A stretch of DNA of 64,000 nucleotides, from the NCBI GenBank assembly GCA_938045065.1, contig CALIOA010000068.1, positions 77,495-141,494 on the forward strand, given 5' to 3'. Under the pieces are notes generated by a model that ran no database searches, was not told the origin of the DNA, and worked only from the letters and a program-made list of their open reading frames with translations. This document shows positions 1,021 to 52,784 of the stretch, in pieces. The stretch's first letter is position 1; every line of letters starts with the position of its first letter. The DNA comes from an uncultured Collinsella sp. Lineage in GTDB: Bacteria > Actinomycetota > Coriobacteriia > Coriobacteriales > Coriobacteriaceae. The translations under genes and the position numbers were made by a program.

Positions 1021-1264
1021 TACAACCGCGACACTTATGTCACCCTGAGTATCGAAACTCAGCGCAAGACATCGTTCTCAAGCTCGTAGGCAACCGCCAC
1101 GCCCGCTGATATCTCACCCATACGAGACGTATTCAATTGCGGCTTGGTTGCAAAACGACACCGGTCACCGGATATCATGAACGCTGTTCAGGCGCACTAT
1201 AGTAAGCTGTATCCGCACCAGCCCGTATCAGCGACAACATCGACCGCATTCTCCAGGAGACGCC

Positions 1265-2281
1265 ATGACCCAACCAGTTCGCACCGCACCTACGCTTGCC
1301 GAGGTTGCCGCAGCTGCCGGCGTGTCGCGCTCCACGGCATCGCGCGCTCTCAACGATTCGCCCCGCATTAGCGAGGAAACCAAAAGGCGCGTCCGCGCGG
1401 CGGCCAAGGAAGTCAATTTTGTCCCCAACGCTCGTGGCCGAGCGCTCGCTGTCGGGCGCACGGAAATCATCGCCGTGCTCGTGACCGAGCCCCTGAGTGA
1501 ACTCTTCAGCGACCCCACCTATAGCGAGTTTTTGAGCGGCATTACCGAGGAGCTGTCAGAGTCGTCCTACCTGCCCGTTATCTTGCAGGCGTCTTCTACG
1601 CATGAGCGCAACCGCGCACGCGAGCACTTTGAGCGCCGCTCGTTCGACGCCGTGATCGACGTCTCCCCCTACAAGGGCAGCGAGCTGCTCGAGGTACTGC
1701 GCGAGCTGGGCGTACCCACCGTGTTGTGCGGCCAGCTCGAGGGCCACCCCTATCGTGATGTGTTCTCGACAGTCTACTCTGACGACGAAGAGGGCGGACG
1801 CTTTGCGGCACTCGCCATAAAGGATCGCGGGCGCAAAGATATCGTCGCCGTGTTGGGACCGCAAGACAACCCCGCTGTTGCCGACCGCCTGCGCGGCTAC
1901 CGCGCCGTCTTGGGCGAAGACCTTCCAGACGCAAACGTTATCTATACCGGCTGGAACAGCGGAGACGGCTATCAGGCCATGCACCAGATTCTCGCGCGCG
2001 AGATCGCTTTCGATGGCGTGCTCTGCGGATCGGACCGTATCGCGGCTGGCGTCATCACCGCACTCAACGAGGCAGGCCTATCCGTTCCGGCGGACGTTTC
2101 TGTCGTCGGCTTCGACGATCACGAGATTGCGACGCGCTGCGTCCCCGCGCTCACGACCGTCCGCCAGCCCCTGCGCGAAGAAGGCCACATGGCCGCCAAC
2201 ATTGCGCTCGACATGATCAAGGGTGCCGAGCCGACCACCTCCGTGATGCACATGCAGCTGATCCAGAGAGACTCGCTATAA
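1265..2281 (+). CDS. LacI-family transcriptional regulator
   Basis: N-terminal HTH LAEVAAAAGVSRSTASRALN followed by a periplasmic-binding-protein-like sugar-binding domain; 338 aa. Confidence 0.9.
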   Translation: MTQPVRTAPTLAEVAAAAGVSRSTASRALNDSPRISEETKRRVRAAAKEVNFVPNARGRALAVGRTEIIAVLVTEPLSELFSDPTYSEFLSGITEELSESSYLPVILQASSTHERNRAREHFERRSFDAVIDVSPYKGSELLEVLRELGVPTVLCGQLEGHPYRDVFSTVYSDDEEGGRFAALAIKDRGRKDIVAVLGPQDNPAVADRLRGYRAVLGEDLPDANVIYTGWNSGDGYQAMHQILAREIAFDGVLCGSDRIAAGVITALNEAGLSVPADVSVVGFDDHEIATRCVPALTTVRQPLREEGHMAANIALDMIKGAEPTTSVMHMQLIQRDSL

Positions 2282-2287
2282 GAAACT

Positions 2288-2497
2288 GGGGCAGGCTTTC
2301 CGCCAGACAGTTGTTGCGGAAAGCCCGGCCCGTTTTGAGCGCTCATTCTGGGGCACAGTTTCCGTTAGACAGCTCTACCGGAAACTGTGCCCCATTATTT
2401 TGCCGAATTCTGGGTCGCGCTTTCCCAGAGGACCCCCTTTGGGAAAGCGCGACCCGTTCTGGACCCAGATTCCGGGACGCACTTTCCGCGACGCCCG
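2288..2497. repeat. tandem array of four GGG-N6-TTTCC / GGAAA-N6-CCC hairpin units (REP-like)
   Basis: Perfect 15-bp stems GGGGCACAGTTTCCG/CGGAAACTGTGCCCC and GGGTCGCGCTTTCCC/GGGAAAGCGCGACCC, plus two imperfect units. Spacers are conserved as ..TTCTG..ATTC.. and stem interiors vary with compensatory changes. The array sits between the convergent 3' ends of lacI and aspS. Confidence 0.7.
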
Positions 2498-2586
2498 GTC
2501 ACCCCATGCCCTCACAATCTCGGCGTATAAAAAACGAGGGAAGGCACGCGTCCTTCCCTCGTTACGGGCAATATGTAGCCGCTTGC

Positions 2587-4374
2587 CTACATCAGGCGCA
2601 GGCTGACGTCCTTGAGCTGGGCGCCGCTAACGGCACTCGGGGCGCCCGACATGAGGTCGGAGCCGCTGGCCGTCTTGGGGAACGCCATGACGTCGCGGAT
2701 GGAGTCGGAACCGGTGAGCAGCATGCACACGCGGTCCAGGCCCAAAGCGAAACCGCCCATCGGGGGCGCACCAAACTTGAGTGCCTCCATGAGGAAGCCG
2801 AACTGAGACTCGGCACGCTCCTCGGTAAAGCCCAGGAGCTTGAGCATGGACATCTGCATCTCGGCGTTGTGGATACGCATACCGCCGCCGCCGGCCTCAA
2901 AGCCGTCCATGACAAAGTCGTAGGTGCAAGAACCGGCTGCCAACGGATCGGCCTCGATCTTGGCGATGTCGGTCTCGGTCGGCAGGGTGAAGGGCTGGTG
3001 CTCGGCAGCGTAAGCCTTGCGATCCTCGTCCCAGTGGAACAGCGGGAAGTTGACGACCCACAGGAAGTCGTGGCCCTCGCGCTTGATCTCGAGTGCGTTG
3101 GCCATGTGAGAACGCATGCCGCCCAGGATCTCGTCGGAGAGCAGGCGCGGGCCGGCGGCGAACATCACAAGGTCGCCGGGCTCGACGTCCATGCGCTCGC
3201 GCAGAGCGGCCATCTCCTCGTCCGAGAAGAACTTGACGATGGGGCTGTTGATGGAGCCGTCCTCGCGGAAGGCGATCCAGGCCAGGCCCTTGGCGCCAAA
3301 CGTGGAGGCCACGCCGGCGAGCTTATCGATCTTGGCACGTGCCCAGGCACCGGCGCCCTTGGCGTTGATGGCCTTGACGACAGAGCCCTCCTCGTTTGCG
3401 GCAGTCGCAAAGACCTTGAACTTGGAGTTGGCAAAGATGTCGGTCAGGTCGACCAGGTGCATGCCATAGCGGGTATCGGGCTTGTCGGAGCCATAGGTGT
3501 CCATGGCATCCCAGTAGTTCATGCGACGCAGCGGCGTGGGCATCTCGACGCCCATGCGGCCGAAAGCATCGGCCAGGACTTCTTCGAGTGCGCTCATGAC
3601 ATCGTTCTGGTCCACGAAGGACATCTCGATGTCGACCTGGGTGAACTCGGGCTGACGGTCGGCACGCAGGTCCTCGTCGCGGAAGCACTTGGCAACCTGG
3701 TAGTAGCGCTCGACGCCACCGACCATGAGCAGCTGCTTCAGGAGCTGCGGGGACTGCGGCAGGGCATAGAAGTTACCCGGCTGAATACGGCTGGGAACGA
3801 TGAAGTCGCGGGCGCCCTCGGGCGTGGACTTAAACAGGGAGGGCGTCTCGACCTCCATGAACTCACGGTTGTGCAGCGCCTCGCGAATGGCAAAGGTGAA
3901 GTCGGAGCGCAGCTTGAGGTTGGCCATCATCTCGGGACGGCGGAGGTCCAGATAGCGATAGCGCAGACGGGTGTCCTCGCTGGTCTCGATGCCGTCCTCG
4001 ATCTGGAACGGCGGGGTGACGGACGTGTTGAGCACCTCGGCGTGGTCGGTCAGGACCTCGATCTCGCCGGTCGCGAGCTTGGTGTTGGTGGTCTCCTCGC
4101 CACGGGAGCGCACGACGCCGTGGATCTTGATGGGCCACTCGGGACGCATGGTCTCGGCGATCTTAAAGGCATCGCCATCGGAGTGCTCGGGGTCGAAGGT
4201 GAGCTGCGTGATGCCCTCGCGGTCGCGAAGGTCGCAGAAGATAAGGCCGCCGTGGTCGCGGCGACGGCTCACCCAACCGGTGAGGGTGACCTCTTCGCCC
4301 ACGTTCTCGAAGCGAAGCTCGCCGCAGGTACGGGTGTGCATGGAATGCTCATCGATGGGACGGGTCTGGCTCAT
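2587..4374 (-). CDS. aspS: aspartate--tRNA ligase
   Basis: 595 aa; full-length class II aaRS with OB-fold N-terminus, FRDEDLRADRQPEFTQVD and a GGG..R.HN motif region typical of AspRS. Confidence 0.95.
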   Translation of the reverse strand: MSQTRPIDEHSMHTRTCGELRFENVGEEVTLTGWVSRRRDHGGLIFCDLRDREGITQLTFDPEHSDGDAFKIAETMRPEWPIKIHGVVRSRGEETTNTKLATGEIEVLTDHAEVLNTSVTPPFQIEDGIETSEDTRLRYRYLDLRRPEMMANLKLRSDFTFAIREALHNREFMEVETPSLFKSTPEGARDFIVPSRIQPGNFYALPQSPQLLKQLLMVGGVERYYQVAKCFRDEDLRADRQPEFTQVDIEMSFVDQNDVMSALEEVLADAFGRMGVEMPTPLRRMNYWDAMDTYGSDKPDTRYGMHLVDLTDIFANSKFKVFATAANEEGSVVKAINAKGAGAWARAKIDKLAGVASTFGAKGLAWIAFREDGSINSPIVKFFSDEEMAALRERMDVEPGDLVMFAAGPRLLSDEILGGMRSHMANALEIKREGHDFLWVVNFPLFHWDEDRKAYAAEHQPFTLPTETDIAKIEADPLAAGSCTYDFVMDGFEAGGGGMRIHNAEMQMSMLKLLGFTEERAESQFGFLMEALKFGAPPMGGFALGLDRVCMLLTGSDSIRDVMAFPKTASGSDLMSGAPSAVSGAQLKDVSLRLM

Positions 4375-4630
4375 ACCAGTGATCCTCCTTTATGGATCTG
4401 TGCCGCCCCGTGTCGTTCCGGGCGGCGTCGTACAGATTTGCCCAGCCTGCGTAAACCGCGCAGCCAGACATGGCGTTCTATGTTATCGCACCCGCGTCGA
4501 TGTGCCGCGAAAAAGTAGCTCTTACCCAAAGACTTGACGGAGACGAAACAATTGACGCACCGCGGCACCCGCCCGCGCTATTCACGTGCGACAATATGCC
4601 CCAATAAAACAGCACTTGGAAAGGCCCATC

Positions 4631-5266
4631 ATGACTGCACGCCTCATTGTTATGGATATCGACTCCACGCTCATCAACCAGGAGGTCATCGACCTGTTGG
4701 GCGAGGAGGCCGGCGTGGGCGAGCAAGTTGCGCAAATCACCGAGCGCGCTATGTGCGGCGAGCTGGACTTTAAGCAGGCGCTCGAGGAGCGCGTGGGGCT
4801 GCTTGCCGGCTTGGACGAAAGTGTGTTCGAGCGCACCTTTGAGCGCGTGACGTTTACCCCCGGCGCGCTGGAGCTTGTGCGCTCGGCGCACAGCAAGGGC
4901 TGGAAAGTCGGCGTGGTAAGCGGCGGCTTTCACGAGGTCGCCGATAAGATCGTGGCCGCCGCGGGCATCGACTTTTGCCTCGCTAACCGCCTGGAGGTCG
5001 TGGGCGGCCAGCTCACCGGTAAGCTGGCGGCAGACATCGTGACCAAAGAGTCCAAGCTCATCCAGCTGCTGGACTGGGCGGTTGAGTGCGGTGTCGATAT
5101 GGCTCATACCGTCGCGATCGGCGACGGCGCCAACGACATCCCCATGATTCAGGCCGCGGGCACGGGCATCGCATTTTGCGCCAAGCCCAAGACGCGCGAG
5201 GCCGCCCCGTTTGCCATCGATGAGCGCAACCTGATGCTCGCCATGGACATCATCCTGCGTGACTAG
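4631..5266 (+). CDS. serB: phosphoserine phosphatase (HAD family)
   Basis: DIDSTL (DxDxT) motif I, GDGAND motif and HAD fold; start trimmed to the ATG at 4631, which has an upstream GGAAAGG RBS. Confidence 0.8.
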   Translation: MTARLIVMDIDSTLINQEVIDLLGEEAGVGEQVAQITERAMCGELDFKQALEERVGLLAGLDESVFERTFERVTFTPGALELVRSAHSKGWKVGVVSGGFHEVADKIVAAAGIDFCLANRLEVVGGQLTGKLAADIVTKESKLIQLLDWAVECGVDMAHTVAIGDGANDIPMIQAAGTGIAFCAKPKTREAAPFAIDERNLMLAMDIILRD

Positions 5267-5306
5267 TCAGTTTGCTTCACAACTTCATCTAATCTGACAT
5301 ATCAGA

Positions 5307-5338
5307 TTTCCGAACAATTATGCTCTAATGTTCGGAAA
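5307..5338. promoter_or_regulatory. perfect inverted repeat TTTCCGAACA-N12-TGTTCGGAAA, ~45 bp upstream of larB
   Basis: 10-bp perfect arms at 5307-5316 and 5329-5338; a candidate operator, possibly for the TetR encoded in the cluster. Confidence 0.35.
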
Positions 5339-5382
5339 CAACCCTTCGCGTGCTAAACTTTTCTGCGTCGAAGGGAACTTAT

Positions 5383-6165
5383 ATGGACAAACGAGATCTT
5401 GAGCAATTGCTAAGTGACGTGGCAGACGGAAGCATTACGCCGGCCGATGCCCTCACGCGCATCCAGACGGCGCCGACCGCCGACCTGGGCTTTGCACAGC
5501 TCGATCTTTCGCGCGGAGTGCGCCAGGGAGCCGGCGAGGTTGTCTACGGTGCCGGTAAAACCGCCGAGCAAATTGCCGCCATTATCGAAGCGCTGCGCGA
5601 TGCCGGCCAGGAGCGCATCCTGGTCACGCGCCTGGATGCCGAAAAGGCAGCCCGCACCTCGGAGTTCCTCGGCAACGGCATCGACCTGGGATATGTCCCG
5701 GACGCGCAGCTCGCCCTCGTGGGCGGCAAGCCCTCCCCTACCGGCAACGGACGCATCGTCGTCGCCTGCGCCGGCACGAGCGACCTGCCCGTCGCCGAGG
5801 AAGCCGCGTTGACGGCCGAGTTCTATGGCAACGAGGTCGACCTCCTCTACGACGTAGGCGTCGCCGGCCTGCACCGCCTACTCGCGCATGCCGAGGAACT
5901 TGCCCAGGCACAGGTGGTCATCGCCATCGCCGGCATGGAGGGCGCGTTGGCGAGCGTTATCGGCGGTCTGGTGAGCTGTCCGGTCATCGCCGTTCCCACC
6001 AGCGTGGGCTACGGCGCAAGTTTTGGTGGCGTAGCCGCACTGCTCGCCATGCTCAATTCCTGTGCCAGCGGCGTATCGGTCGTCAATATCGACAACGGCT
6101 TTGGCGCCGCTTACCAGGCAAGTCTTATCAATCATCTGAGCGCCGGCACACCCCGCGCCCGCTAA
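5383..6165 (+). CDS. larB: nickel-pincer cofactor biosynthesis protein LarB (PurE-like carboxylase/hydrolase)
   Basis: C-terminal PurE-like AIR-carboxylase fold (GMEGALASVIGGLVSCPVIAVPTSVGYG). It is clustered with larC, larD and larA. Confidence 0.8.
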   Translation: MDKRDLEQLLSDVADGSITPADALTRIQTAPTADLGFAQLDLSRGVRQGAGEVVYGAGKTAEQIAAIIEALRDAGQERILVTRLDAEKAARTSEFLGNGIDLGYVPDAQLALVGGKPSPTGNGRIVVACAGTSDLPVAEEAALTAEFYGNEVDLLYDVGVAGLHRLLAHAEELAQAQVVIAIAGMEGALASVIGGLVSCPVIAVPTSVGYGASFGGVAALLAMLNSCASGVSVVNIDNGFGAAYQASLINHLSAGTPRAR

Positions 6166-6175
6166 GGAGCATTCC

Positions 6176-7087
6176 ATGTCCAATCATCAGCACACGCTTA
6201 TCATCGACGGCACCTCGGGCATCAGCGGCGATATGACCGTCGCGGCCCTGCTCGACCTGGGCGCCAGCGAGGAGCACCTGCGCGAACAGCTCGCCACACT
6301 GCCGGTCGACGGCTTTACGATCGCCGTCACGCGCGTAAACAAGCATGGCATCGACGCCTGCGATTTCGACGTTCAGCTGGCAGAAGAGCTCGAGAACCAC
6401 GACCACGACATGGCATGGCTCTACGGCAACGAAGCAGCTGCCGAGCACACGCACGAGCACGAGCACCACCATCATGACCATGACGAGCATGAGCACTGCC
6501 ATGAGCATGATCATGAGACCCACGGCCATGGCCACGAGGGTCACCATCACGTCCACCACCATCACCACCGTTCTTTGGCGGACGTCACCGCTATCATCGA
6601 CGGCTCGCAGCTAAGCGATGGCGCCAAGCGTCGTGCGCTCGCCATCTTTACCGCGCTCGCCGCCGCCGAGGCAAAGGCCCACGGCAAAACGCCCGAGACC
6701 GTCATGTTCCACGAGGTAGGCGCCGTCGATTCCATCGTCGACGTCTGCTCTGTCGCCATCTGCCTCGATGACCTAGGTATTGAGGACATCGTGGTCGAGT
6801 CGCTCTCCGAAGGCCACGGAACCATTCGCTGCGCCCACGGCCTTATGCCCATTCCCGTCCCCGCTGTCGTCAACCTGTGCCAGGCGGGCAATATCGCCCT
6901 CACGCCCGCACCGGTCGCTGGCGAGCTCGTGACGCCCACGGGCGCCGCCATCGTCACCGCGCTGCGCACGTCCGAGCACCTGCCGGCACGCTACCACATC
7001 GAGGCCGTCGGCTACGGCGCCGGCAAGCGCCCCTACGAGGGTTGCTCCGGCACGCTCCGTTGTCTACTCGTTGACGTGGATGCATAG
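6176..7087 (+). CDS. larC: nickel insertion protein LarC, N-terminal (LarC1-type) domain with His-rich insert; the C-terminal CTP-binding domain is absent
   Basis: IDGTSGISGDM motif of LarC/DUF111 and a His-rich stretch HEHEHHHHDHDEHEHCHEHDHETHGHGHEGHHHVHHHHH. The ORF stops 2 nt before the TetR gene. Confidence 0.75.
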   Translation: MSNHQHTLIIDGTSGISGDMTVAALLDLGASEEHLREQLATLPVDGFTIAVTRVNKHGIDACDFDVQLAEELENHDHDMAWLYGNEAAAEHTHEHEHHHHDHDEHEHCHEHDHETHGHGHEGHHHVHHHHHRSLADVTAIIDGSQLSDGAKRRALAIFTALAAAEAKAHGKTPETVMFHEVGAVDSIVDVCSVAICLDDLGIEDIVVESLSEGHGTIRCAHGLMPIPVPAVVNLCQAGNIALTPAPVAGELVTPTGAAIVTALRTSEHLPARYHIEAVGYGAGKRPYEGCSGTLRCLLVDVDA

Positions 7088-7089
7088 CC

Positions 7090-7629
7090 ATGGATGCCCG
7101 CAAAGAAAAAAGCCGCGCTGCCATCGTTGCAGCGTTCTCCGAGCTGCTACGCGAAGTGGACTACGGCAAGATCACTGTCGGCGACATCATCGCTCGCGCC
7201 CACGTAGGCCGCGCGACATTCTACGGCCTCTTTAAGAGCAAAGACGACCTACTGTCCGAGCTCGTGAGCGACATCTGCACCCACGCCCTCGACGACGATG
7301 GTACGCCGCTCGACGACCCACTCGTGCAAGTCGAGCATATCCTCAACAACCTCTGGGAGCGCCGCCAGGGCGTCCGAGCCCTCGTAGCCGGCGCCGGCTC
7401 CCGCGTCTTCGCCGACTGCCTACGCAAGACCATCATGTCACGAGCAGCCGAAACCGTGCCCGCCGACCCCACAGGCCCCGCCGGCACCATGGACCGCAGC
7501 TTCTTACTACACCACATAGCCTCAAGCTTCGTAGCAACCGTCCAATGGTGGGCCTGGCACAACTTCCAAGCCCCAAAAGAGAACGTAGCCAAAGACTACC
7601 TATCAGCCATAAAACCCCTCTTCAGCTAA
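7090..7629 (+). CDS. TetR/AcrR-family transcriptional regulator
   Basis: N-terminal TetR HTH (ITVGDIIARAHVGRATFYGLFKSKDDL); 179 aa. Confidence 0.85.
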   Translation: MDARKEKSRAAIVAAFSELLREVDYGKITVGDIIARAHVGRATFYGLFKSKDDLLSELVSDICTHALDDDGTPLDDPLVQVEHILNNLWERRQGVRALVAGAGSRVFADCLRKTIMSRAAETVPADPTGPAGTMDRSFLLHHIASSFVATVQWWAWHNFQAPKENVAKDYLSAIKPLFS

Positions 7630-7787
7630 GTAAGAAACTCATCTCAAAGCACCGCCCCACCCCAAGGCGCCACGCATCCCAAAGTGTCACTCGCACTTCG
7701 ATGCCCCCAACAGCAACAAGCCCCTCCCATCCAAATTCAGATATATATATGTTGGGTTGCTTGTTCGAACACAGCCAAAAATGCCCA

Positions 7788-7912
7788 GGGCTCGGTAAGG
7801 GTTAACTTTCCAACGCACTCCGCAGGACGCAAAAAGGCTCGCCGCACGAAGTGCGCAGCGAGCCTTTTTGCATGTCCGAGGACGCGTTGGAAAGTTAACC
7901 CTTACCGAGCCC
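7788..7912. repeat. ~125-bp palindromic element, copy A (conserved centre, variable complementary outer arms)
   Basis: Outer arms GGGCTCGGTAAGGGTTAACTTTCCAACGC/GCGTTGGAAAGTTAACCCTTACCGAGCCC flank a core ACTCCGCAGGACGCAAAAAGGCTCGC-CGCACGAAGTGCG-CAGCGAGCCTTTTTGCATGTCCGAGGAC. A second copy sits at 10600-10726. Confidence 0.7.
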
Positions 7913-37242: not shown

Positions 37243-37274
37243 GAGGATTCGAATCCCCAGCCGCCATTCTTGAT
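37243..37274 (-). repeat. terminal fragment (T-arm-like end) of the tRNA-associated repeat element
   Basis: GAGGATTCGAATCCCCAGCCGCCATTCTTGAT parallels the end of the full Ser-locus element (CTCGGGTTCGAATCCCCAGCGCCCTTTCTCGAT). Confidence 0.4.
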
Positions 37275-37317: not shown

Positions 37318-37465
37318 TGGCGGAGAGCTGGGGATTTCCGGGCATGCTACGCATGCCCTCCGGCTTCAAAGCCTGGCGGCTTTTCGCCCACGGGCTACAA
37401 ACGCTTTCGCGTTTGCTTAACGCCCGTGCCCTCTCGGGTTCGAATCCCCAGCGCCCTTTCTCGAT
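37318..37465 (-). repeat. tRNA-associated structured repeat element (Ser-locus copy)
   Basis: Starts with a 19-nt duplicate of the tRNA-Ser 3' end (TGGCGGAGAGCTGGGGATT on the plus strand). The core carries hairpin AAACGCTTTCGCGTTT and ends with a T-arm-like GGGTTCGAATCCCC. It is bounded by terminators at 37277-37307 and 37467-37494. Confidence 0.7.
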
Positions 37466-40133: not shown

Positions 40134-40236
40134 GAAATATCACCCTGATCGGTCGTCTAGAGAAGGAGCGGTCGCGGATAGGCCGCGATACCTACTCGGA
40201 ATCTTACACGAGTCGATAAGAAATCGTCCGCTTCAC

Positions 40237-40270
40237 GCCCGCGCCTCGACCGAGGTTCGAATCCATGCAG
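40237..40270 (-). repeat. terminal fragment of the tRNA-associated repeat element (Arg locus)
   Basis: GCCCGCGCCTCGACCGAGGTTCGAATCCATGCAG is identical to the end of the full Arg copies. Confidence 0.4.
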
Positions 40271-40318
40271 TGCTTACGTAAAAGAAAAGCCCCCGTTGCC
40301 GGGAGCTTTAATCTCAAA

Positions 40319-40460
40319 TGGTGCGGCGTATAGGATTCCGCGCATCCGCTGCGCGGATCCGCACCGGCTTCGCCCGCCTGCCGGCGTGCTCGCCCGCTCG
40401 CTAAAAACGCTCCGCGTTTTCTTGGCGCTCGCGCCTCGACCGAGGTTCGAATCCATGCAG
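40319..40460 (-). repeat. tRNA-associated structured repeat element (Arg-locus copy 1)
   Basis: Begins with TGGTGCGGCGTATAGGATT, a 19-nt duplicate of the tRNA-Arg 3' end. The core carries hairpins GGATTCCGCGC..GCGCGGATCC, CCGGC..GCCGG and AAAACGCTCCGCGTTTT, and it ends with GGTTCGAATCCATGCAG. Confidence 0.7.
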
Positions 40461-40508: not shown

Positions 40509-40585
40509 TGGTGCGGCGTATAGGATTCGAACCTATGACGTTCTGATTCGTAGTCAGACCCTCTATCCAGCTGAGGTAACGCCGC
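40509..40585 (-). tRNA. tRNA-Arg (anticodon ACG), CCA encoded
   Basis: GCGGCGT acceptor, anticodon loop CTACGAA and T-arm ATAGGTTCGAATCCTAT; own promoter TTGACC-17-CATAAT upstream. Confidence 0.9.
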
Positions 40586-40743
40586 AACTTGTTGATTATT
40601 ATGCACATGGACTGAATAATGGTCAAGCGTTTTTTCAAAAAAAGTTATCGAATTTGATTTTTACTCATTTGGAGGGCTTGGCACGATCTTCGGTGCATCG
40701 CGATATAAGAAAAGCCCCCGTTTCCGGAGGCTTTAAATTCAAT

Positions 40744-40888
40744 TGGTGCGGCGTATAGGATTCCGCGCATCCGCTGCGCGGATCCGCACCGGCTTCGCCC
40801 GCCTGCCGGCGGACTCGCCCGCTCGCTAAAAACGCTCCGCGTTTTCTTGACGCTCGCGCCTCGAACGAGGTTCGAATCTCCGCAATGC
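40744..40888 (-). repeat. tRNA-associated structured repeat element (Arg-locus copy 2)
   Basis: Same architecture as copy 1, with a slightly diverged right end (CGAACGAGGTTCGAATCTCCGCAATGCC). Confidence 0.7.
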
Positions 40889-40933
40889 CCCCGTAAAGGA
40901 AAAGCCCCCGTTTCCGGAGGCTAAAAACCCAAT

Positions 40934-41010
40934 TGGTGCGGCGTATAGGATTCGAACCTATGACGTTCTGATTCGTAGTCAGACCCTCTATCCAGCTGAG
41001 GTAACGCCGC
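40934..41010 (-). tRNA. tRNA-Arg (anticodon ACG), second copy
   Basis: Identical sequence to the copy at 40509-40585; own TTGACC-17-CATAAT promoter. Confidence 0.9.
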
Positions 41011-41100
41011 AACGCACGGATTATTATGCACGCGAGCCCCCGATGGGTCAAGCGACAATTTGGAAAATTTTTACGAAGCGCTGATTAAGTTGTCATGCTG

Positions 41101-41212
41101 ATCCGCACCGGCTTCGCCCGCCTGCCGGCGCGCTCGCCCGCGGGCTAAAATCGCTCCGCGCTTTCTTGACGCCCGCGCCTCGACCGAGGTTCGAATCCAT
41201 GCGGCGTCCGCC
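41101..41212 (-). repeat. tRNA-associated repeat element, 5'-truncated copy (lacks the tRNA 3'-end duplicate)
   Basis: Starts within the core at ATCCGCACCGGCTTCGCCCGCC; the rest is identical to the following full copy. Confidence 0.6.
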
Positions 41213-41252
41213 TAAAAGAAAAGCCCCCGTTGCCGGAGGCTTTAAGTTCGAT

Positions 41253-41402
41253 TGGTGCGGCGTATAGGATTCCGCGCATCCGCTTCGCGGATCCGCACCG
41301 GCTTCGCCCGCCTGCCGGCGCGCTCGCCCGCGGGCTAAAATCGCTCCGCGCTTTCTTGACGCCCGCGCCTCGACCGAGGTTCGAATCCATGCGGCGTCCG
41401 CC
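41253..41402 (-). repeat. tRNA-associated structured repeat element (Arg-locus copy 4)
   Basis: Full copy, bounded by terminators at 41213-41250 and 41403-41440. Confidence 0.7.
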
Positions 41403-41442
41403 TAAAAGAAAAGCCCCCGTTGCCGGAGGCTTTAAGTTCGAT

Positions 41443-41519
41443 TGGTGCGGCGTATAGGATTCGAACCTATGACGTTCTGATTCGTAGTCAGACCCTCTAT
41501 CCAGCTGAGGTAACGCCGC
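41443..41519 (-). tRNA. tRNA-Arg (anticodon ACG), third copy
   Basis: Identical sequence to the other two Arg copies. Confidence 0.9.
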
Positions 41520-43543: not shown

Positions 43544-43717
43544 ATGGACGCAGTTTTTTCCTTTTTGTTTGGCACCCGCACCGGTTTTGCCATCCTTTTC
43601 GCCGGTGGCATCCTGCTATTTGCGATTCTTGCCTTTGTGATGGAGAAGCGCACCCATAAGATGTATGTCGACCGCGGCCCCAAGTCCGAGGACGAAGAAG
43701 ACAGCTTCTGGGACTAA
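43544..43717 (+). CDS. possible small membrane protein (57 aa)
   Basis: MDAVFSFLFGTRTGFAILFAGGILLFAILAFVMEKRTHK..; one TM helix; followed by a strong terminator. Below the ORF-track size cutoff; speculative. Confidence 0.3.
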   Translation: MDAVFSFLFGTRTGFAILFAGGILLFAILAFVMEKRTHKMYVDRGPKSEDEEDSFWD

Positions 43718-43728
43718 CCTGCCAAAAA

Positions 43729-43861
43729 GGGACAGGTTTATTTTGGTCGGTTTTATCTGGGCAAACGCAAGCGCCCCGCAACTGGAATTGAGCCAGTTGC
43801 GGGGCGCTTTTTGCTCAAGGTACAAAACCGCAGGAAAACCCTGCCAAAATAAACCTGTCCC
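43729..43861. terminator. bidirectional terminator: inner 16-bp stem plus TTTTT (plus strand), outer 18-bp stem plus TTTTT (minus strand, proC)
   Basis: AGCGCCCCGCAACTGG-AATTGAG-CCAGTTGCGGGGCGCT TTTTT; the outer GGGACAGGTTTATTTTGG/CCAAAATAAACCTGTCCC pair is followed by TTTTT on the minus strand. Confidence 0.6.
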
Positions 43862-43873
43862 TTATTGGCCAGT

Positions 43874-44644
43874 TTACTGGAGAGTAGCGTCGATGGCCTT
43901 GACGAGGGCGCTGCGCATGCCGGCGTCCTCGAGCGCGACGACGCCCTTGATGGTAGCACCGCCGGGCGAGCACACGGCATCCTTCATCGCTGCGGGATGC
44001 TGACCGGTTGCAAGCTGCAGCTTTGCCGTACCCAGCACCATCTGGCTCACAATGCGATAGGCATCGGCGCGCGGAATACCGTGTTTGACGGCCGCATCGC
44101 CCAGAGCCTCGATCGCCATGGCGACAAACGCCGGAGCGCAACCACCCACCGTGCCGCCCACGAACAGCAGGCTCGTATCGAGCTCGACCACCGTACCGAG
44201 CTTGCCAAGCAGATCAAGCACCACGGCGCTCTGCTCATCACTAAGCGTGGAAGCCTTCTCGCAAGCGATGACGCCCTCGCCCACCGAAACCGGTGTGTTG
44301 GGCACCGTCGAGATATGCGCGACGCCCGGCAGGACCTGCTCCCACTTGGCACTGTCCCAGGTCCAGGCAACCGACAGAACGACCTTTTTGGCAAGAGCAT
44401 CCTTGAGCGGGGCGAATACCTTCTCGACCATGTACGGTTTGACCGCAGCGACCACGATATCGGATGCGGCGACAACCTCGGCGGCATCGTGGCAAGCGGC
44501 CATCCCACGCGCCTCACAGCGCTCAACCAGTGCGTCGTAGCGACCCGCACAGGCGCACATGTCGCTCGCAGCTACACCGGCAGCGATCCAGCCATCGGCC
44601 ATGGCGCTCGCCATATTGCCAAAACCGACAAATCCAATCTTCAT
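43874..44644 (-). CDS. proC: pyrroline-5-carboxylate reductase
   Basis: N-terminal Rossmann motif GFVGFGNMA and a P5CR dimerisation domain. Confidence 0.9.
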   Translation of the reverse strand: MKIGFVGFGNMASAMADGWIAAGVAASDMCACAGRYDALVERCEARGMAACHDAAEVVAASDIVVAAVKPYMVEKVFAPLKDALAKKVVLSVAWTWDSAKWEQVLPGVAHISTVPNTPVSVGEGVIACEKASTLSDEQSAVVLDLLGKLGTVVELDTSLLFVGGTVGGCAPAFVAMAIEALGDAAVKHGIPRADAYRIVSQMVLGTAKLQLATGQHPAAMKDAVCSPGGATIKGVVALEDAGMRSALVKAIDATLQ

Positions 44645-46133: not shown

Positions 46134-46249
46134 GGTCTCTCCTCTGATAGGCACACGTTGGCACTAGGATACCCGCACGAAGCAGCAACGTGACATCAAC
46201 AAGAGACCCATAACAAAAAAGCTCCCATCGCTGGGAGCCCTTTCATTCA

Positions 46250-46399
46250 ATGGTGCGGGCGAAAGGACGTCCGCGTATCCGCTTCGCGGATCCGCACCGG
46301 CTTCGGCCGCCTGCCGGCGTCCTCGCCAGCTCGCTAAAAACGCTCCGCGTTTTCTTTACGCTCGCTCCTTCACAGGTTCAAGTCCCTGCGATGGGCCCA
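46250..46399 (-). repeat. tRNA-associated structured repeat element (Leu-locus copy)
   Basis: Begins with TGGTGCGGGCGAAAGGAC, an 18-nt duplicate of the tRNA-Leu 3' end. The core is ~90% identical to the Arg copies (ATCCGCTTCGCGGATCCGCACCGGCTTCG..GCTCGCTAAAAACGCTCCGCGTTTTCTT). It ends with CAGGTTCAAGTCCCTG, a T-arm matching the tRNA-Leu T-loop. Confidence 0.7.
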
Positions 46400-46438
46400 T
46401 AACAAAAAAGCTCCCATTACTGGAAGCTCTTTCATTTA

Positions 46439-46525
46439 ATGGTGCGGGCGAAAGGACTTGAACCTTCATGGGGTTGCCCCCATACGGACCTGAACCGTAC
46501 GCGTCTGCCAATTCCGCCACGCCCG
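46439..46525 (-). tRNA. tRNA-Leu (anticodon CAG), CCA encoded
   Basis: GCGGGCG acceptor, anticodon loop TTCAGGT, long variable arm and T-arm AAGGTTCAAGTCCTT; 87 nt. Confidence 0.9.
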
Positions 46526-46569
46526 CGTGCAGGAATTAGAATAACGGAGCGCCACCACGAACGCAAGAA

Positions 46570-52469: not shown

Positions 52470-52523
52470 CAGAGCCCTCGATAAAAGAAAAGGACCCCTT
52501 TGCAGAGGTCCTAGTCAATTCAA

Positions 52524-52668
52524 GGTGGCGGGGAAGGAAATCGCGCCCGCGCTCCGCGCGTGCGGACCGCTGCGGCGCTTGCGCGCCTTGCGAGCTCCGC
52601 TGGCAAACGCTCACGCGTTTACTCAGCTCCGCGCCCTCACGGGGTTCGATTCCATGTGGGGGCTGCAT
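52524..52668 (-). repeat. tRNA-associated structured repeat element (Phe-locus copy; more diverged core)
   Basis: Begins with GGTGGCGGGGAAGG, a duplicate of the tRNA-Phe 3' end. The core keeps hairpin AAACGCTCACGCGTTT, and the end carries GGGGTTCGATTCC, matching the tRNA-Phe T-loop. Bounded by identical terminators at 52483-52511 and 52669-52697. Confidence 0.65.

Positions 52669-52709: not shown

Positions 52710-52784
<75 letters not shown>

Follow-up and report, generated by a model that had tools for sequence, protein, structure and literature searches.

The tRNA-Leu(CAG) locus

The window (the whole stretch of 64,000 nt that was analysed) contains six tRNA genes, and all six carry a copy of one element. 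At the tRNA-Leu(CAG) gene this element occupies positions 46251-46387, about 137 nt, and its tRNA-sense strand is the minus strand of the window (Table 1). Read in this sense, the layout found throughout the family is the tRNA gene, its terminator, a variable leader, an antisense copy of the tRNA T-arm (about positions 51-67; A'), four hairpins and a sense copy of tRNA positions 57/59-76 (t3), after which a second terminator is often present. Members of the family are about 135 nt in size and share a five-helix RNA fold.

As the original prediction had it, the Leu copy carries the last 18 nt of the tRNA: TGGTGCGGGCGAAAGGAC at 46251-46268 of the plus strand is identical to the 3' end of tRNA-Leu(CAG). 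A proposed T-arm mimic with a Leu-type loop was also found, as CAGGTTCAAGTCCCTG at 46373-46388 (plus strand), the Arg copies having the Arg-type loop. On the tRNA-sense strand the CAGGTTCAAGTCCCTG region is an antisense tRNA-Leu T-arm, with an exact match of 12 nt (GGACTTGAACCT, 46374-46385) that is the reverse complement of tRNA positions ~51-62. The earlier description missed both the antisense orientation of the mimic relative to the tRNA and its pairing with the duplicated 3' end of the tRNA. The Leu A' is made up of the 5' strand of helix P1 (AGGGACUU, 46380-46387), an unpaired GAA (46377-46379) and the three nucleotides with which P2 begins; the first 6-7 nt of t3 form the 3' strand of P1, and the remainder is a single-stranded tail of acceptor strand and CCA.

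Two terminators bracket the element, each consisting of a GC-rich hairpin with a T-run, and they lie in a 62-nt direct repeat (D4; 46207-46268 and 46396-46457) with 92% identity. The part of this repeat holding the trailer and terminator 1 diverges by 5.6% among 21 species. The terminators had been described as locus-specific, which is not strictly so, the Leu type of terminator and leader being present also in tRNA-Val-linked units of other Collinsella genomes. Hairpin 46220-46239 was flagged by prediction on the plus strand as well, and the Arg copies were all flagged; the element core is not itself an intrinsic terminator, this property being confined to the flanking hairpins. No promoter-like site belonging to the element was predicted, and the plus-strand sequence TTGACG-N17-TCGAAT was rejected as a promoter since it is not conserved across tRNA types. 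Given the strong intrinsic terminator upstream and no promoter-like site, production of an RNA from the element would have to rely on read-through.

Table 1. Features of the tRNA-Leu locus and further copies of the element in the window.
Feature	Coordinates	Strand	Remarks
tRNA-Leu(CAG) gene	46440-46526	minus	CCA encoded; ARAGORN; Rfam tRNA model 50.6 bits
tRNA trailer and intrinsic terminator 1	46399-46439	minus	hairpin 46409-46428, T-run; read from the sequence
Variable leader GGGCCCATCGC, terminator 1 to element	46388-46398	minus	unconserved
A', antisense copy of tRNA-Leu T-arm	46374-46387	minus	pairs with t3; interspecies divergence 0%
P2 hairpin CCU-GUGA-AGG	46367-46376	minus	GNRA loop; helix 3: 97% paired, compensatory changes in 3/3 pairs
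P3	46328-46366	minus	outer helix with tandem G·A pairs; internal loop GUAAAG/UA; apical AAAACGC-GGA-GCGUUUU; helices 4 and 5
P4	46299-46327	minus	3-bp outer helix GGC/GCC; internal loop GA/GAA; inner hairpin with GGCA loop; helices 6 and 7
P5	46273-46295	minus	10-bp hairpin, one purine-purine mismatch, GAA loop; helix 8: compensatory changes in 9/10 pairs
Junction GGAC	46269-46272	minus	GA pairs with UC of A'; C bulged
t3, sense copy of tRNA-Leu positions 59-76 (GUCCUUUCGCCCGCACCA)	46251-46268	minus	identical to 46440-46457
Second trailer copy and terminator 2	46210-46250	minus	hairpin 46220-46239
tRNA-Arg(ACG)-linked copy A	40319-40457	minus	cmsearch 136.7 bits
Truncated extra copy by Arg copy A (A' to mid-P3)	40227-40277	minus	nhmmer
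tRNA-Arg-linked copy B	40744-40882	minus	cmsearch 134.5 bits
tRNA-Arg-linked copy C	41253-41391	minus	cmsearch 133.5 bits
Copy adjoining Arg copy C, without P5 and t3	41048-41201	minus	cmsearch 88.4 bits
tRNA-Ser(GCT)-linked copy	37318-37450	minus	cmsearch 118.8 bits; D9 repeat
tRNA-Phe(GAA)-linked copy	52523-52656	minus	cmsearch 49.2 bits

Copies at other tRNA genes

The Leu copy scored 154 bits (E=2e-36) with the covariance model (CM), and the motif of core plus T-arm was matched 4 times in the window against 0 times in 100 shuffles, so the Leu element is not a chance resemblance. Its core is 86.9% identical to that of Arg copy A, 87.0% to B and 83.2% to C. The Leu and Arg cores are therefore homologous as claimed, at 83-87% identity and not the ~90% first given. 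The Arg copies are 91-96% identical to each other, and the Ser and Phe copies 63-69% identical to the other copies of the window. A solitary additional A' lies at about 37245-37262 of the Ser locus.

A recent segmental or local duplication moving the Arg spacer to the Leu locus could explain the identity of the cores. However, the Arg and Leu flanks share no sequence outside the element and the repeat families end at its borders, so that this objection to the original prediction fails. The Ser, Arg, Leu and Phe copies all have cognate ends in unrelated flanks, in agreement with the earlier view that a common core with locally matched ends is not the product of simple duplication. Moreover, the Leu copy is orthologous and already of the Leu type in 21 species whose flanks differ by 19-30%, and the duplication is regarded as refuted.

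In Collinsella/Coriobacteriaceae, elements of this family follow tRNA genes of at least 15 anticodon types, and one tRNA-Val locus in Mobiluncus also carries an element; among the 240 related loci collected, the ends are cognate each time. The same CM matches Arg, Leu, Gly, Ser, Phe, Val, Gln, Glu, Lys and Thr loci. The element is absent from some tRNAs (Val-GAC, Pro-CGG, Leu-GAG), and the loci of TatD homologues from other Coriobacteriia, compared for synteny, had neither a tRNA-Leu nor a CM match. Collinsella is a prominent genus of the human gut, and the element stands after most of the tRNA transcription units examined in the window and the related loci.

The element belongs to no family of Rfam 15, which includes tRNA, tmRNA, Collinsella-1 (RF01700), group I and II introns, HEARO and ribozymes. 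A cmscan of the 36-54 kb region at E<=1 returned six tRNAs and chance matches only, and the Leu and Mobiluncus copies, scanned with the laxer limit of E<=10, gave only weak terminator-like matches far under the gathering scores. Searches with ARAGORN and RF00005 for a tRNA gene or pseudogene in the element yielded only the six genuine tRNAs. No description of its architecture was found in the literature searched.

A five-way junction on the tRNA-sense strand

A' and t3 pair as helix P1, closing a five-way junction of P1-P5 and leaving single-stranded the GAA, which is the complement of U54-U55-C56, and a tail of acceptor strand and NCCA. RNAalifold recovered P1-P5 from an unbiased MAFFT alignment, and MFE folding alone led to this five-way junction in the Ser copy (z = -7.0) and the Mobiluncus copy (z = -4.6). 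Among 127 distinct CM-aligned copies, 90.9% of the cells are paired, against 75.5% after shuffling and 33-43% with slid partners, and compensatory (double) changes were found in 33/45 pairs, although the CM alignment behind most of these pair counts is biased towards the model structure. Compensatory changes preserve the fold between subfamilies and also in Mobiluncus.

The two strands of the element are not equivalent. On the tRNA-sense strand, and there only, nearly all hairpin loops are GNRA or GNA; G·U was counted 94 times on this strand and A·C 46 times, and 281 cells have G·A or A·G at positions that are G-C in other copies. The alternation of tandem G·A with G-C and the excess of G·U fit selection at the level of RNA. 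Compensatory changes combined with strand asymmetry, both of which the element shows, are what is generally expected of a structured ncRNA. GNA triloops closed by C-G are also a hallmark of stable DNA mini-hairpins, and a single-stranded DNA form of the element is possible.

In the outer helix of P3, the tandem G·A/A·G of some copies is replaced by G-C/G-C in others, and the apical stem of P3 is kept also in the Mobiluncus copy. The outer pair of P4 covaries (GC:65 / CG:52). P5 is preceded by a linker GGU (46296-46298), and its stem sequences are entirely unlike in the Ser, Phe and Val types. The junction hexamers are likewise type-specific (GCGGAC, CGCGGA, GGCTGA or ACGCGA). Readings of CUGAGGA and the GA/GAA loops as hammerhead or K-turn motifs were discarded because of misfit to the consensus geometry. 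A tRNA-like gene on the plus strand was also discarded: its 'T-arm + CCA' end is unpaired with the 5' end, the leader is unconserved, and neither ARAGORN nor Rfam gave a match.

Sequence constraint

Divergence at the Leu locus among 21 species was 3.7% in the core, 0% in A' and 1.7% in t3; it was 9.9% in the leader, 19-28% in the flanking ORFs and 29.5% in the intergenic DNA just beyond terminator 2. Corresponding values at the Phe locus were 4.9% for the core, 18% for the leader and 37% for the flank, and the leader of the Ser loci diverged by 37%. Constraint on the element sequence is about 5-8 times that on the flanks. Cross-locus gene conversion was rejected as the source of the low divergence: paralogues within genomes retain their type-specific differences. 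Both this strong constraint and the covarying five-way junction on the tRNA-sense strand had been overlooked earlier.

The tRNA-derived ends

Mismatch between t3 and the neighbouring tRNA is 0-4% per site in 14 types, and 0-2% in 22 distinct Leu loci. The match persists where the trailer that follows is unrelated (60-82% mismatch). The median match of A' to the antisense of its cognate tRNA is 12-17 nt long, that to non-cognate tRNAs 8 nt. The place of the junction is constant, between tRNA positions 58 and 59 (58/59), and NTYGA precedes both borders of the element. At one locus (L010) the tRNA-Gly gene has A59, yet t3 retains G59 and A' its complementary C. The identity of t3 and tRNA could stem from history and general constraint and not from a need to match.

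The tRNA-Phe gene of the window and its element copy both finish in ...GCCACC/TTGAA, so CCA is not fully encoded in either. The tRNA-Val gene of Mobiluncus also lacks a full CCA, and t3 follows it in this. Since t3 has no full CCA where the gene has none, it was probably copied from DNA and not from mature tRNA. A length of 18 nt is that of the classic m1A58 stop; an origin of t3 by reverse transcription from a primer binding site (PBS) was nevertheless rejected, because t3 follows the gene and not the mature tRNA and the Mobiluncus and Phe copies have no CCA. Insertion into a second tRNA copy with a decayed 5' part was rejected as well, the left flank being antisense and not sense, as the discriminating Leu and Gly loci show.

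Structured RNA module, mobile DNA or integration scar

We tentatively interpret the Leu element as one member of an old paralogous family that selection has maintained, consisting of structured RNA modules of ~135 nt located 3' of tRNA transcription units, a reading to which we give a little less than an even chance. The RNA would arise by read-through of the tRNA's own terminator and end at the second terminator where one is present. The pieces of cognate tRNA may confer specificity for the element's own tRNA, either by base pairing or by mimicry at the T-arm and 3' end, and candidate roles concern the way in which the 3' end of the tRNA, its read-through precursors or its gene are handled. 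Spread to other tRNA loci would have occurred by an ancient duplicative process copying both sides of the target T-loop at 58/59, probably from DNA and not from mature tRNA. If the RNA is functional, it forms a multi-paralogue family, each member matched to one tRNA, and implies a so far unrecognised biology of individual tRNAs, which might concern the handling of 3' ends, repair, surveillance or the targeting of genes.

Several features speak against such modules, as they resemble selfish repeated DNA: the element forms tandem arrays, its terminal copies are truncated, the number of copies varies between species, and some tRNAs lack it. It could instead be a non-autonomous mobile or integrative DNA element (MITE-like, a 'miniature integrative element') that is directed to tRNA genes at their T-loop or 3' end and depends on mobilisation in trans. 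Its hairpins would then serve a DNA or ssDNA transposition intermediate or render read-through transcripts harmless, and its tRNA-specific ends would come from the target site. We consider this unlikely on balance, though more probable than the other alternatives. Multiple copies at at least 15 tRNA types, with a preference for T-loops of the TTCGA type, are in its favour, as are the junction fixed at 58/59 and the C-GNA-G loops known from DNA mini-hairpins. The tandem arrays point the same way: their distal unit is truncated at locus-specific points, those at Val consist of 1-3 units, varying between species, with the two terminator types in either order, and there are 'solo' remnants at two Ser loci (L039 and L065) and inter-element recombinants at two further loci (L096 and L137).

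No autonomous copy and no adjacent transposase, integrase or RT gene was found at the ~240 genomic and metagenomic loci (L001-L240) whose sequence next to the element was read. A target-site duplication is missing, and terminal inverted repeats of the ordinary kind are not apparent. A' and t3 do form an inverted repeat of 7-11 bp (P1), but this varies between copies with the tRNA and is thus not a family-wide TIR; no short duplication flanks A'...t3, the only direct repeats being t3 with or without the terminator. IS200/IS605-type PATEs and omega-RNAs have subterminal hairpins, insert 3' of a fixed tetra- or pentanucleotide so that the uninterrupted target forms the left flank, and have tnpA/tnpB relatives in the genome; in the element, P2 and P5 are subterminal hairpins and NTYGA stands before both borders, and the left flank is the antisense, not the sense, T-arm (Leu, Gly). 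We know of no mechanism that gives both an antisense and a sense copy of a target, which counts against mobility as well. So do the 5-8 times stronger conservation of orthologous copies relative to their flanks, which the leader in the same block does not share, and the tandem G·A/G-C alternation with G·U excess, which fits RNA-level selection. If the element is selfish DNA after all, it copies the two strands of the target T-arm by a mechanism not yet described, and it accounts for the tRNA-locus rearrangements and arrays in the clade. Either way, the ~135-nt RNA, the junction at 58/59 and a covariance model suited to a genome-wide census offer an experimental handle.

An intact tRNA followed by a partial copy of its own 3' end is the classic signature of integration (10.1101/2022.07.05.498093) and is present here. 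Like the element, the tRNA att sites of prophages, ICEs and islands, which are targets of tyrosine integrases, combine an intact tRNA with a downstream direct partial copy of its 3' end; they likewise have a crossover-like border in a tRNA stem-loop and may form arrays at one tRNA. The clade's tRNA genes do serve as att sites (L032; prophage edges), and the element might be an attL/attR scar of prophage or ICE integration whose cargo was deleted. This origin is very improbable and largely refuted. The genuine island at L032 looks different: it has a 45-nt direct repeat from the anticodon loop and 5.3 kb of cargo, with the element left intact next to the original terminator. Typical att repeats are 44-45 nt (10.1101/2022.07.05.498093), and those of L032 agree, whereas the tRNA repeat of the element is only 18-20 nt (from 57/59). 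The element comes without integrase or cargo, has an extra antisense T-arm, and shares one structured core among at least 15 tRNA species, whereas the stretch between att repeats should be peculiar to the integrated element and differ from one tRNA target to another; covariation and purifying selection are further arguments against a scar. Partial tRNA 3' ends are accordingly not always integrase scars, which calls for caution in annotation.

The element is not phage-borne. It had no blastn match in 50,697 phage records, and a search of IMG/VR gave eight matches, all with the host-type arrangement of tRNA and flank, most of them within ~1.2 kb of the end of the returned stretch beside att-like junctions, which places the viral-contig matches at prophage edges only. 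A looser scan of viral contigs together with the CM added nothing more.

Possible action on the cognate tRNA

A more specific reading is that each tRNA unit has a cognate RNA device acting on its own tRNA or tRNA gene, be it a trans-splicing or ligation cassette, an RNase P external guide or a reprogrammable guide of a DNA enzyme. The antisense T-arm spans 58/59 and the spare sense segment covers 59-76, which could jointly enable such an action; a cassette or RNase P guide would replace or process the 3' segment of the tRNA. This is rather doubtful, but if true it would mean a hitherto unknown class of catalytic or guide RNAs with specificity for single tRNAs.

As a guide-RNA module, similar to a bridge RNA or omega-RNA, the element would direct an RNA-guided DNA enzyme encoded elsewhere to home or integrate by tRNA genes, its scaffold presenting A' for pairing with the sense strand across 58/59 and t3 for pairing with positions 59-76 of the antisense strand. 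We regard this as improbable. The scaffold is followed by an 18-20-nt 3' target-matching segment and then a terminator, GGTTC / TTCGA stands directly 5' of the t3 match in every target tRNA in the manner of a PAM or TAM, and the two segments address opposite strands of one site. TnpB omega-RNA, IS110 bridge RNA and the CAST homing crRNA directed at tRNA genes share several traits with the element: to a conserved scaffold is joined a short stretch with the sequence of the flanking or targeted tRNA DNA, they lie beside a tRNA gene, and one scaffold is reprogrammed to many targets. They differ from it in having an effector gene: no TnpB, IscB, Cas12 or IS110-type gene lies beside the element in the ~240 loci read, most of whose flanking ORFs are unannotated. 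In addition, A' ties up the initial 7-9 nt of the 'guide' in P1, the intact target gene directly upstream would lead to self-targeting, no guide-RNA family of Rfam was matched, and the copies are vertically inherited at fixed loci.

Still less likely is an intron-like or repair ribozyme cassette, with A' as internal guide or splint across 51-67 and t3 as 3' exon. A 5' fragment of the tRNA with A58 as its last nucleotide would be joined to such an RNA by splicing or by ligation (e.g. by RtcB), so that a read-through insert is removed or a damaged 3' segment replaced. Engineered trans-splicing group I ribozymes have the order 5' guide, structured core and 3' exon, which is that of the element, and group I/II introns and trans-splicing ribozymes in general share with it a guide that can pair with the uninterrupted target on both sides of the junction. 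The guide spans exactly 58/59, the constant unpaired GAA could offer U54-U55-C56 a toehold, identity of t3 and tRNA is maintained past what P1 requires, and the junction is compact, with GNRA loops and a receptor-like internal loop. However, no ribozyme or intron model was matched, the ~100-nt core has no known catalytic signatures or similarity to the catalytic core of introns, and the element is about half the size of the smallest group I intron, and a 5' exon is missing immediately upstream. The nucleotide preceding t3 also varies (C, A or U), often with an extra C, and no tRNA gene with the core inserted in its T-loop was found.

Relation to other tRNA-like RNAs and interspersed repeats

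In the tRNA-like domain of tmRNA, viral TLS and the external guide sequences (EGS) of RNase P, as in the element, the acceptor 3' strand and NCCA come after a helix that resembles a T-stem, and the '3/4 EGS' likewise has no acceptor 5' strand. In the element, by contrast, the T-loop is replaced by ~100 nt of hairpins and the acceptor 5' strand is missing in cis; no tmRNA or tRNA model matched it, and the Mobiluncus and Phe copies are without CCA.

ERIC, BOX, Correia/NEMIS and REP/BIME repeats resemble the element in being short, non-coding, multi-copy and intergenic, often near terminators, and able to fold as RNA, and some interspersed repeats, such as ERIC, are more conserved than their flanks. 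The element differs from ERIC, BOX, Correia and REP in that it shows no TIR/TSD signature, is found strictly at tRNA 3' flanks and folds into a five-way junction instead of a long hairpin; none of these repeats is known to carry sequence matched to the neighbouring gene, as the element does.

Cognate ends of the Leu element

The element at the Leu locus (see table) carries an antisense copy of the tRNA T-arm (A') at one end and a sense copy of the tRNA 3' end (t3) at the other. As originally predicted, the 18 nt of t3 correspond to the 3' end of tRNA-Leu (positions 59-76), and the core is homologous to that of the Arg copies. The identity, then put at about 90%, was measured as 83-87% to the three tRNA-Arg-linked copies, which are 91-96% identical among themselves. 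The T-arm mimic proposed for the other end is real, with an exact match of 12 nt, but it is antisense to tRNA-Leu (positions ~51-62). No common sequence was found between the Arg and Leu loci beyond the element borders, which supports the inference already made against simple duplication, and the probability of a segmental duplication as the source of the element is practically negligible.

Positions of the Leu element and of other features in the window and in single element-bearing loci (L numbers)
Feature	Position (nt)	Strand or place
tRNA-Leu(CAG) gene	46440-46526	minus
Trailer and strong intrinsic terminator (Leu)	46399-46439	directly 3' of tRNA-Leu gene, tRNA sense
Leader, 11 nt (Leu)		between first terminator and A', tRNA sense
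AGGGACUU-GAA (Leu)	46377-46387	after leader, tRNA sense
Reverse complement of tRNA-Leu T-arm	46374-46385	
Four hairpins (Leu)	46273-46376	tRNA sense
GGAC (Leu)		between four hairpins and GUCCUUUCGCCCGCACCA, tRNA sense
GUCCUUUCGCCCGCACCA (Leu)	46251-46268	tRNA sense
Trailer and terminator, second copy (Leu)	46210-46250	after GUCCUUUCGCCCGCACCA, tRNA sense
Three tRNA-Arg(ACG) genes	40509-41519	
Promoter-like sites (Arg)	40598-40626; 41023-41051	
Inverted repeat	43716-43874	
tRNA-Phe(GAA) gene	52710-52784	
Duplicated 3' end of tRNA-Phe	52516-52535	
Island in tRNA-Gly(CCC)	~1200-6600	L032
tRNA-Gln/Val chimera	~460-900	L096
tRNA-Arg(CCG)/Glu chimeras	405-672; ~450-726	L137; L224
Extra modules, Gly-CCC	7450-7620; 7540-7830; 1500-1660	L006; L020; L013
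MITE-2	6815-7140; 5170-5490; 4620-4940; 2270-2590	L001; L008; L002; L038

Generally, the first nucleotide of t3 corresponds to tRNA position 59 (57 if the preceding GA is included), and t3 shows 0-4% mismatch per site to the neighbouring tRNA in 14 types. At the Gly, Gln and Lys loci it still matches the tRNA though the downstream sequence is unrelated to the tRNA trailer (60-82% mismatch). The median match of A' is 12-17 nt to the cognate tRNA versus 8 nt to non-cognate tRNAs. The gene of tRNA-Phe(GAA) in the window, whose acceptor stem is mismatched at U4·C69, ends with ...GCCACC followed by T, so that CCA is incompletely encoded, and its duplicated 3' end has the identical ACC|TTGAA junction; tRNA-Val of Mobiluncus likewise lacks the full CCA in gene and copy. 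Since the copies miss CCA where the gene does, the template of A' and t3 was DNA or primary transcript and not mature tRNA, and a retroviral-PBS-type origin of the 18-nt length was ruled out on the same grounds. We know of no mechanism that explains paired antisense and sense copies of a target, and this pairing is the central unexplained fact.

Structure of the element

Helix P1 forms between A' and the initial 7-11 nt of t3 and closes a five-way junction. P1 is followed by the single-stranded GAA, P2 (CCY-GNRA-RGG), P3 (an outer helix, either Watson-Crick or with tandem G·A pairs, an internal loop and apical AAACGC-GNA/GNRA-GCGUUU), P4 (a 3-bp helix, a GA/GAA internal loop and a hairpin), a 3-nt linker and the 10-bp hairpin P5. 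The junction is the MFE fold of the Ser (z = -7.0) and Mobiluncus (z = -4.6) copies, and P1-P5 were recovered by RNAalifold from a plain MAFFT alignment. A covariance model trained on ten copies of the type I subfamily matched every subfamily full-length, including Phe, the Val/Glu/Gln type and Mobiluncus (61 bits). Among 127 distinct aligned copies, 90.9% of the pair cells were standard, versus 75.5% in shuffled controls and 33-43% when the partners were shifted by 1-3 columns, and 33 of the 45 pairs showed compensatory double changes. The architecture is well supported.

On the tRNA-sense strand nearly all hairpin loops are GNRA or GNA, G·U pairs exceed A·C (94 vs 46), and 281 G·A/A·G cells occupy positions at which other copies have G-C, evidence that this is the strand under selection. 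The motifs are those of a folded RNA, and the P3 internal loop GUAAAG/UA may resemble a GNRA-tetraloop receptor. C-GNA-G loops are stable in DNA too, and a single-stranded DNA form is therefore formally possible. Upstream of the element no promoter-like site was predicted, a good terminator being there instead, so the RNA, if made, would arise by read-through. Neither the Rfam 15 models of tRNA, tmRNA, introns, ribozymes and Collinsella-1 nor those of any other family matched the element. That it is an intron-like or repair ribozyme or an RNase P guide is very improbable. The element appears to be undescribed so far and is of high interest.

Distribution and constraint

All tRNA genes of the window (Ser, three Arg, Leu, Phe) carry a downstream unit, and a motif that covers core and T-arm piece together had 4 matches there versus none in shuffles. 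Species-representative genomes scanned with it gave at least 120 matches, of which nearly all those listed were from Collinsella or Coriobacteriaceae, with one from Mobiluncus curtisii; metagenomes, mostly human gut, gave further copies. Elements lie in constant orientation 3' of tRNAs that represent 15 or more anticodon types (~240 loci): Gly-CCC, Gly-GCC, Leu-CAG, Leu-TAA, Arg-ACG, Arg-CCG, Phe-GAA, Ser-GCT, Ser-TGA, Gln-TTG, Glu-TTC, Val-TAC, Lys-CTT, Lys-TTT and Thr-TGT. In related loci the element is missing after tRNAs inside operons, after Leu-GAG, and after Val-GAC and Pro-CGG, both with the T-loop TTCAAAT; the tRNA-Met of the Mobiluncus locus, the only one encountered, is also without it.

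A typical Collinsella tRNA-Gly-linked element was also present on a 2.5-kb contig titled Oscillospiraceae bacterium (L071, assigned to a Firmicutes MAG), probably mis-binned and not a true occurrence beyond Actinomycetota. The three identical tandem tRNA-Arg(ACG) genes of the window are separated by elements, and two of them each possess a promoter-like site, TTGACC-17-CATAAT; the Arg elements are thus interleaved with independently promoted tRNA genes. At three tRNA-Lys-TTT loci (L126, L131, L210) t3 lacks the second terminator, AAGGAA and the ATG of an ORF (MKTDRYGISGSTLKIIAAISMVLDH...) follow within ~20 nt, and the element lies inside a putative 5' UTR.

Mean pairwise divergence at the Leu locus among 21 Collinsella species-level genomes was 0% for the tRNA and A', 1.7% for t3, 3.7% for the core, ~6% for the terminators and 9.9% for the leader, rising to 19-28% for flanking ORFs and 29.5% for intergenic DNA directly beyond terminator 2. 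The Phe locus was similar (core 4.9%, A' 0%, leader 18%, flank 37%). Because Leu, Arg and Ser paralogues stay type-specific inside single genomes, the low divergence is not due to homogenisation among loci, and if the block were simply hitch-hiking with the tRNA, the leader inside it would not be expected to vary. Thus the copies are old, under constraint and inherited vertically.

Arrays, recombinants and origin

Units occur as tandem arrays whose outermost unit is cut off at a locus-specific point: after A' in Ser, in P2 in Val, in P3 in Arg and Glu, and in the leader in Leu. In two Ser loci (L039, L065) only tRNA-terminator-leader-A' remains. Val arrays have 1-3 units; their two terminator types may come in either order, and one of them, with its leader, is also found in Leu units. 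A tRNA-Gln is followed by an element with the tRNA-Val 3' end and Val-locus flank, and two tRNA-Arg(CCG) by elements with the tRNA-Glu 3' end; these chimeras look like rearrangements by recombination between elements of different tRNA loci. Arrays, truncations and recombinants point to duplication or mobility in the past. A miniature element mobilised in trans could explain the arrays, truncations and target preference, but constraint and RNA-type covariation do not fit, and we consider it rather unlikely. Across the ~240 loci read, from genomes and metagenomes, no transposase, integrase or RT gene was found beside the element. A guide RNA serving a DNA enzyme seems improbable.

A phage-borne origin was rejected after searches of phage records and viral contigs. 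As a control for true att duplication in this clade we used the 5.3-kb island in tRNA-Gly(CCC) of L032, with a 45-nt direct repeat from anticodon loop to 3' end and a 454-aa ORF adjoining attR, likely an integrase; it agrees with the published picture of integrase-derived tRNA fragments (10.1101/2022.07.05.498093). The element was undisturbed next to the original terminator. An ordinary att scar was rejected as scarcely credible, since the true island looks different and the element beside it is intact.

Quite possibly, and this is the reading we tentatively prefer, the element functions as a structured RNA module that is coupled to the tRNA it matches; its spread would date far back, through a process in which both strands around T-loop position 58|59 were copied. 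Two parts would be free to interact, the single-stranded GAA (complementary to U54-U55-C56) and the tail formed by the acceptor strand and CCA, and this suggests pairing with, or mimicry of, the tRNA T-arm and 3' end; read-through precursors, tRNA fragments or the tRNA gene are candidate partners.

Some neighbouring repeats were also recorded. Gly-CCC loci have 1-3 extra modules past the full element, each with ~85 nt of unrelated sequence and, of the element itself, no more than the linker, P5, GGAC and a tRNA-Gly 3' end that has degenerated slightly, so that P5-t3 acts as a separable module. A second repeat of ~230 bp, MITE-2, in related loci outside the window, has 28-35-nt terminal inverted repeats AAAAAATGGCAAATATGAGTACTGYTAC around ~170 nt of AT-rich sequence, which differs by locus but has a common ACGCAACATATGTCCA motif. 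Of 121 loci, 34 had it; it lies at the outer end of the tRNA-linked arrays that follow Val, Glu, Gln and Leu tRNAs, often where the last unit is a truncated one. The window also holds an unrelated inverted repeat (AACCTGCCAAAAAGGGACAGGTTTATTTTGG...), the longest of the 37-53 kb region, with 44-nt arms that are 82% complementary and 71 nt apart.
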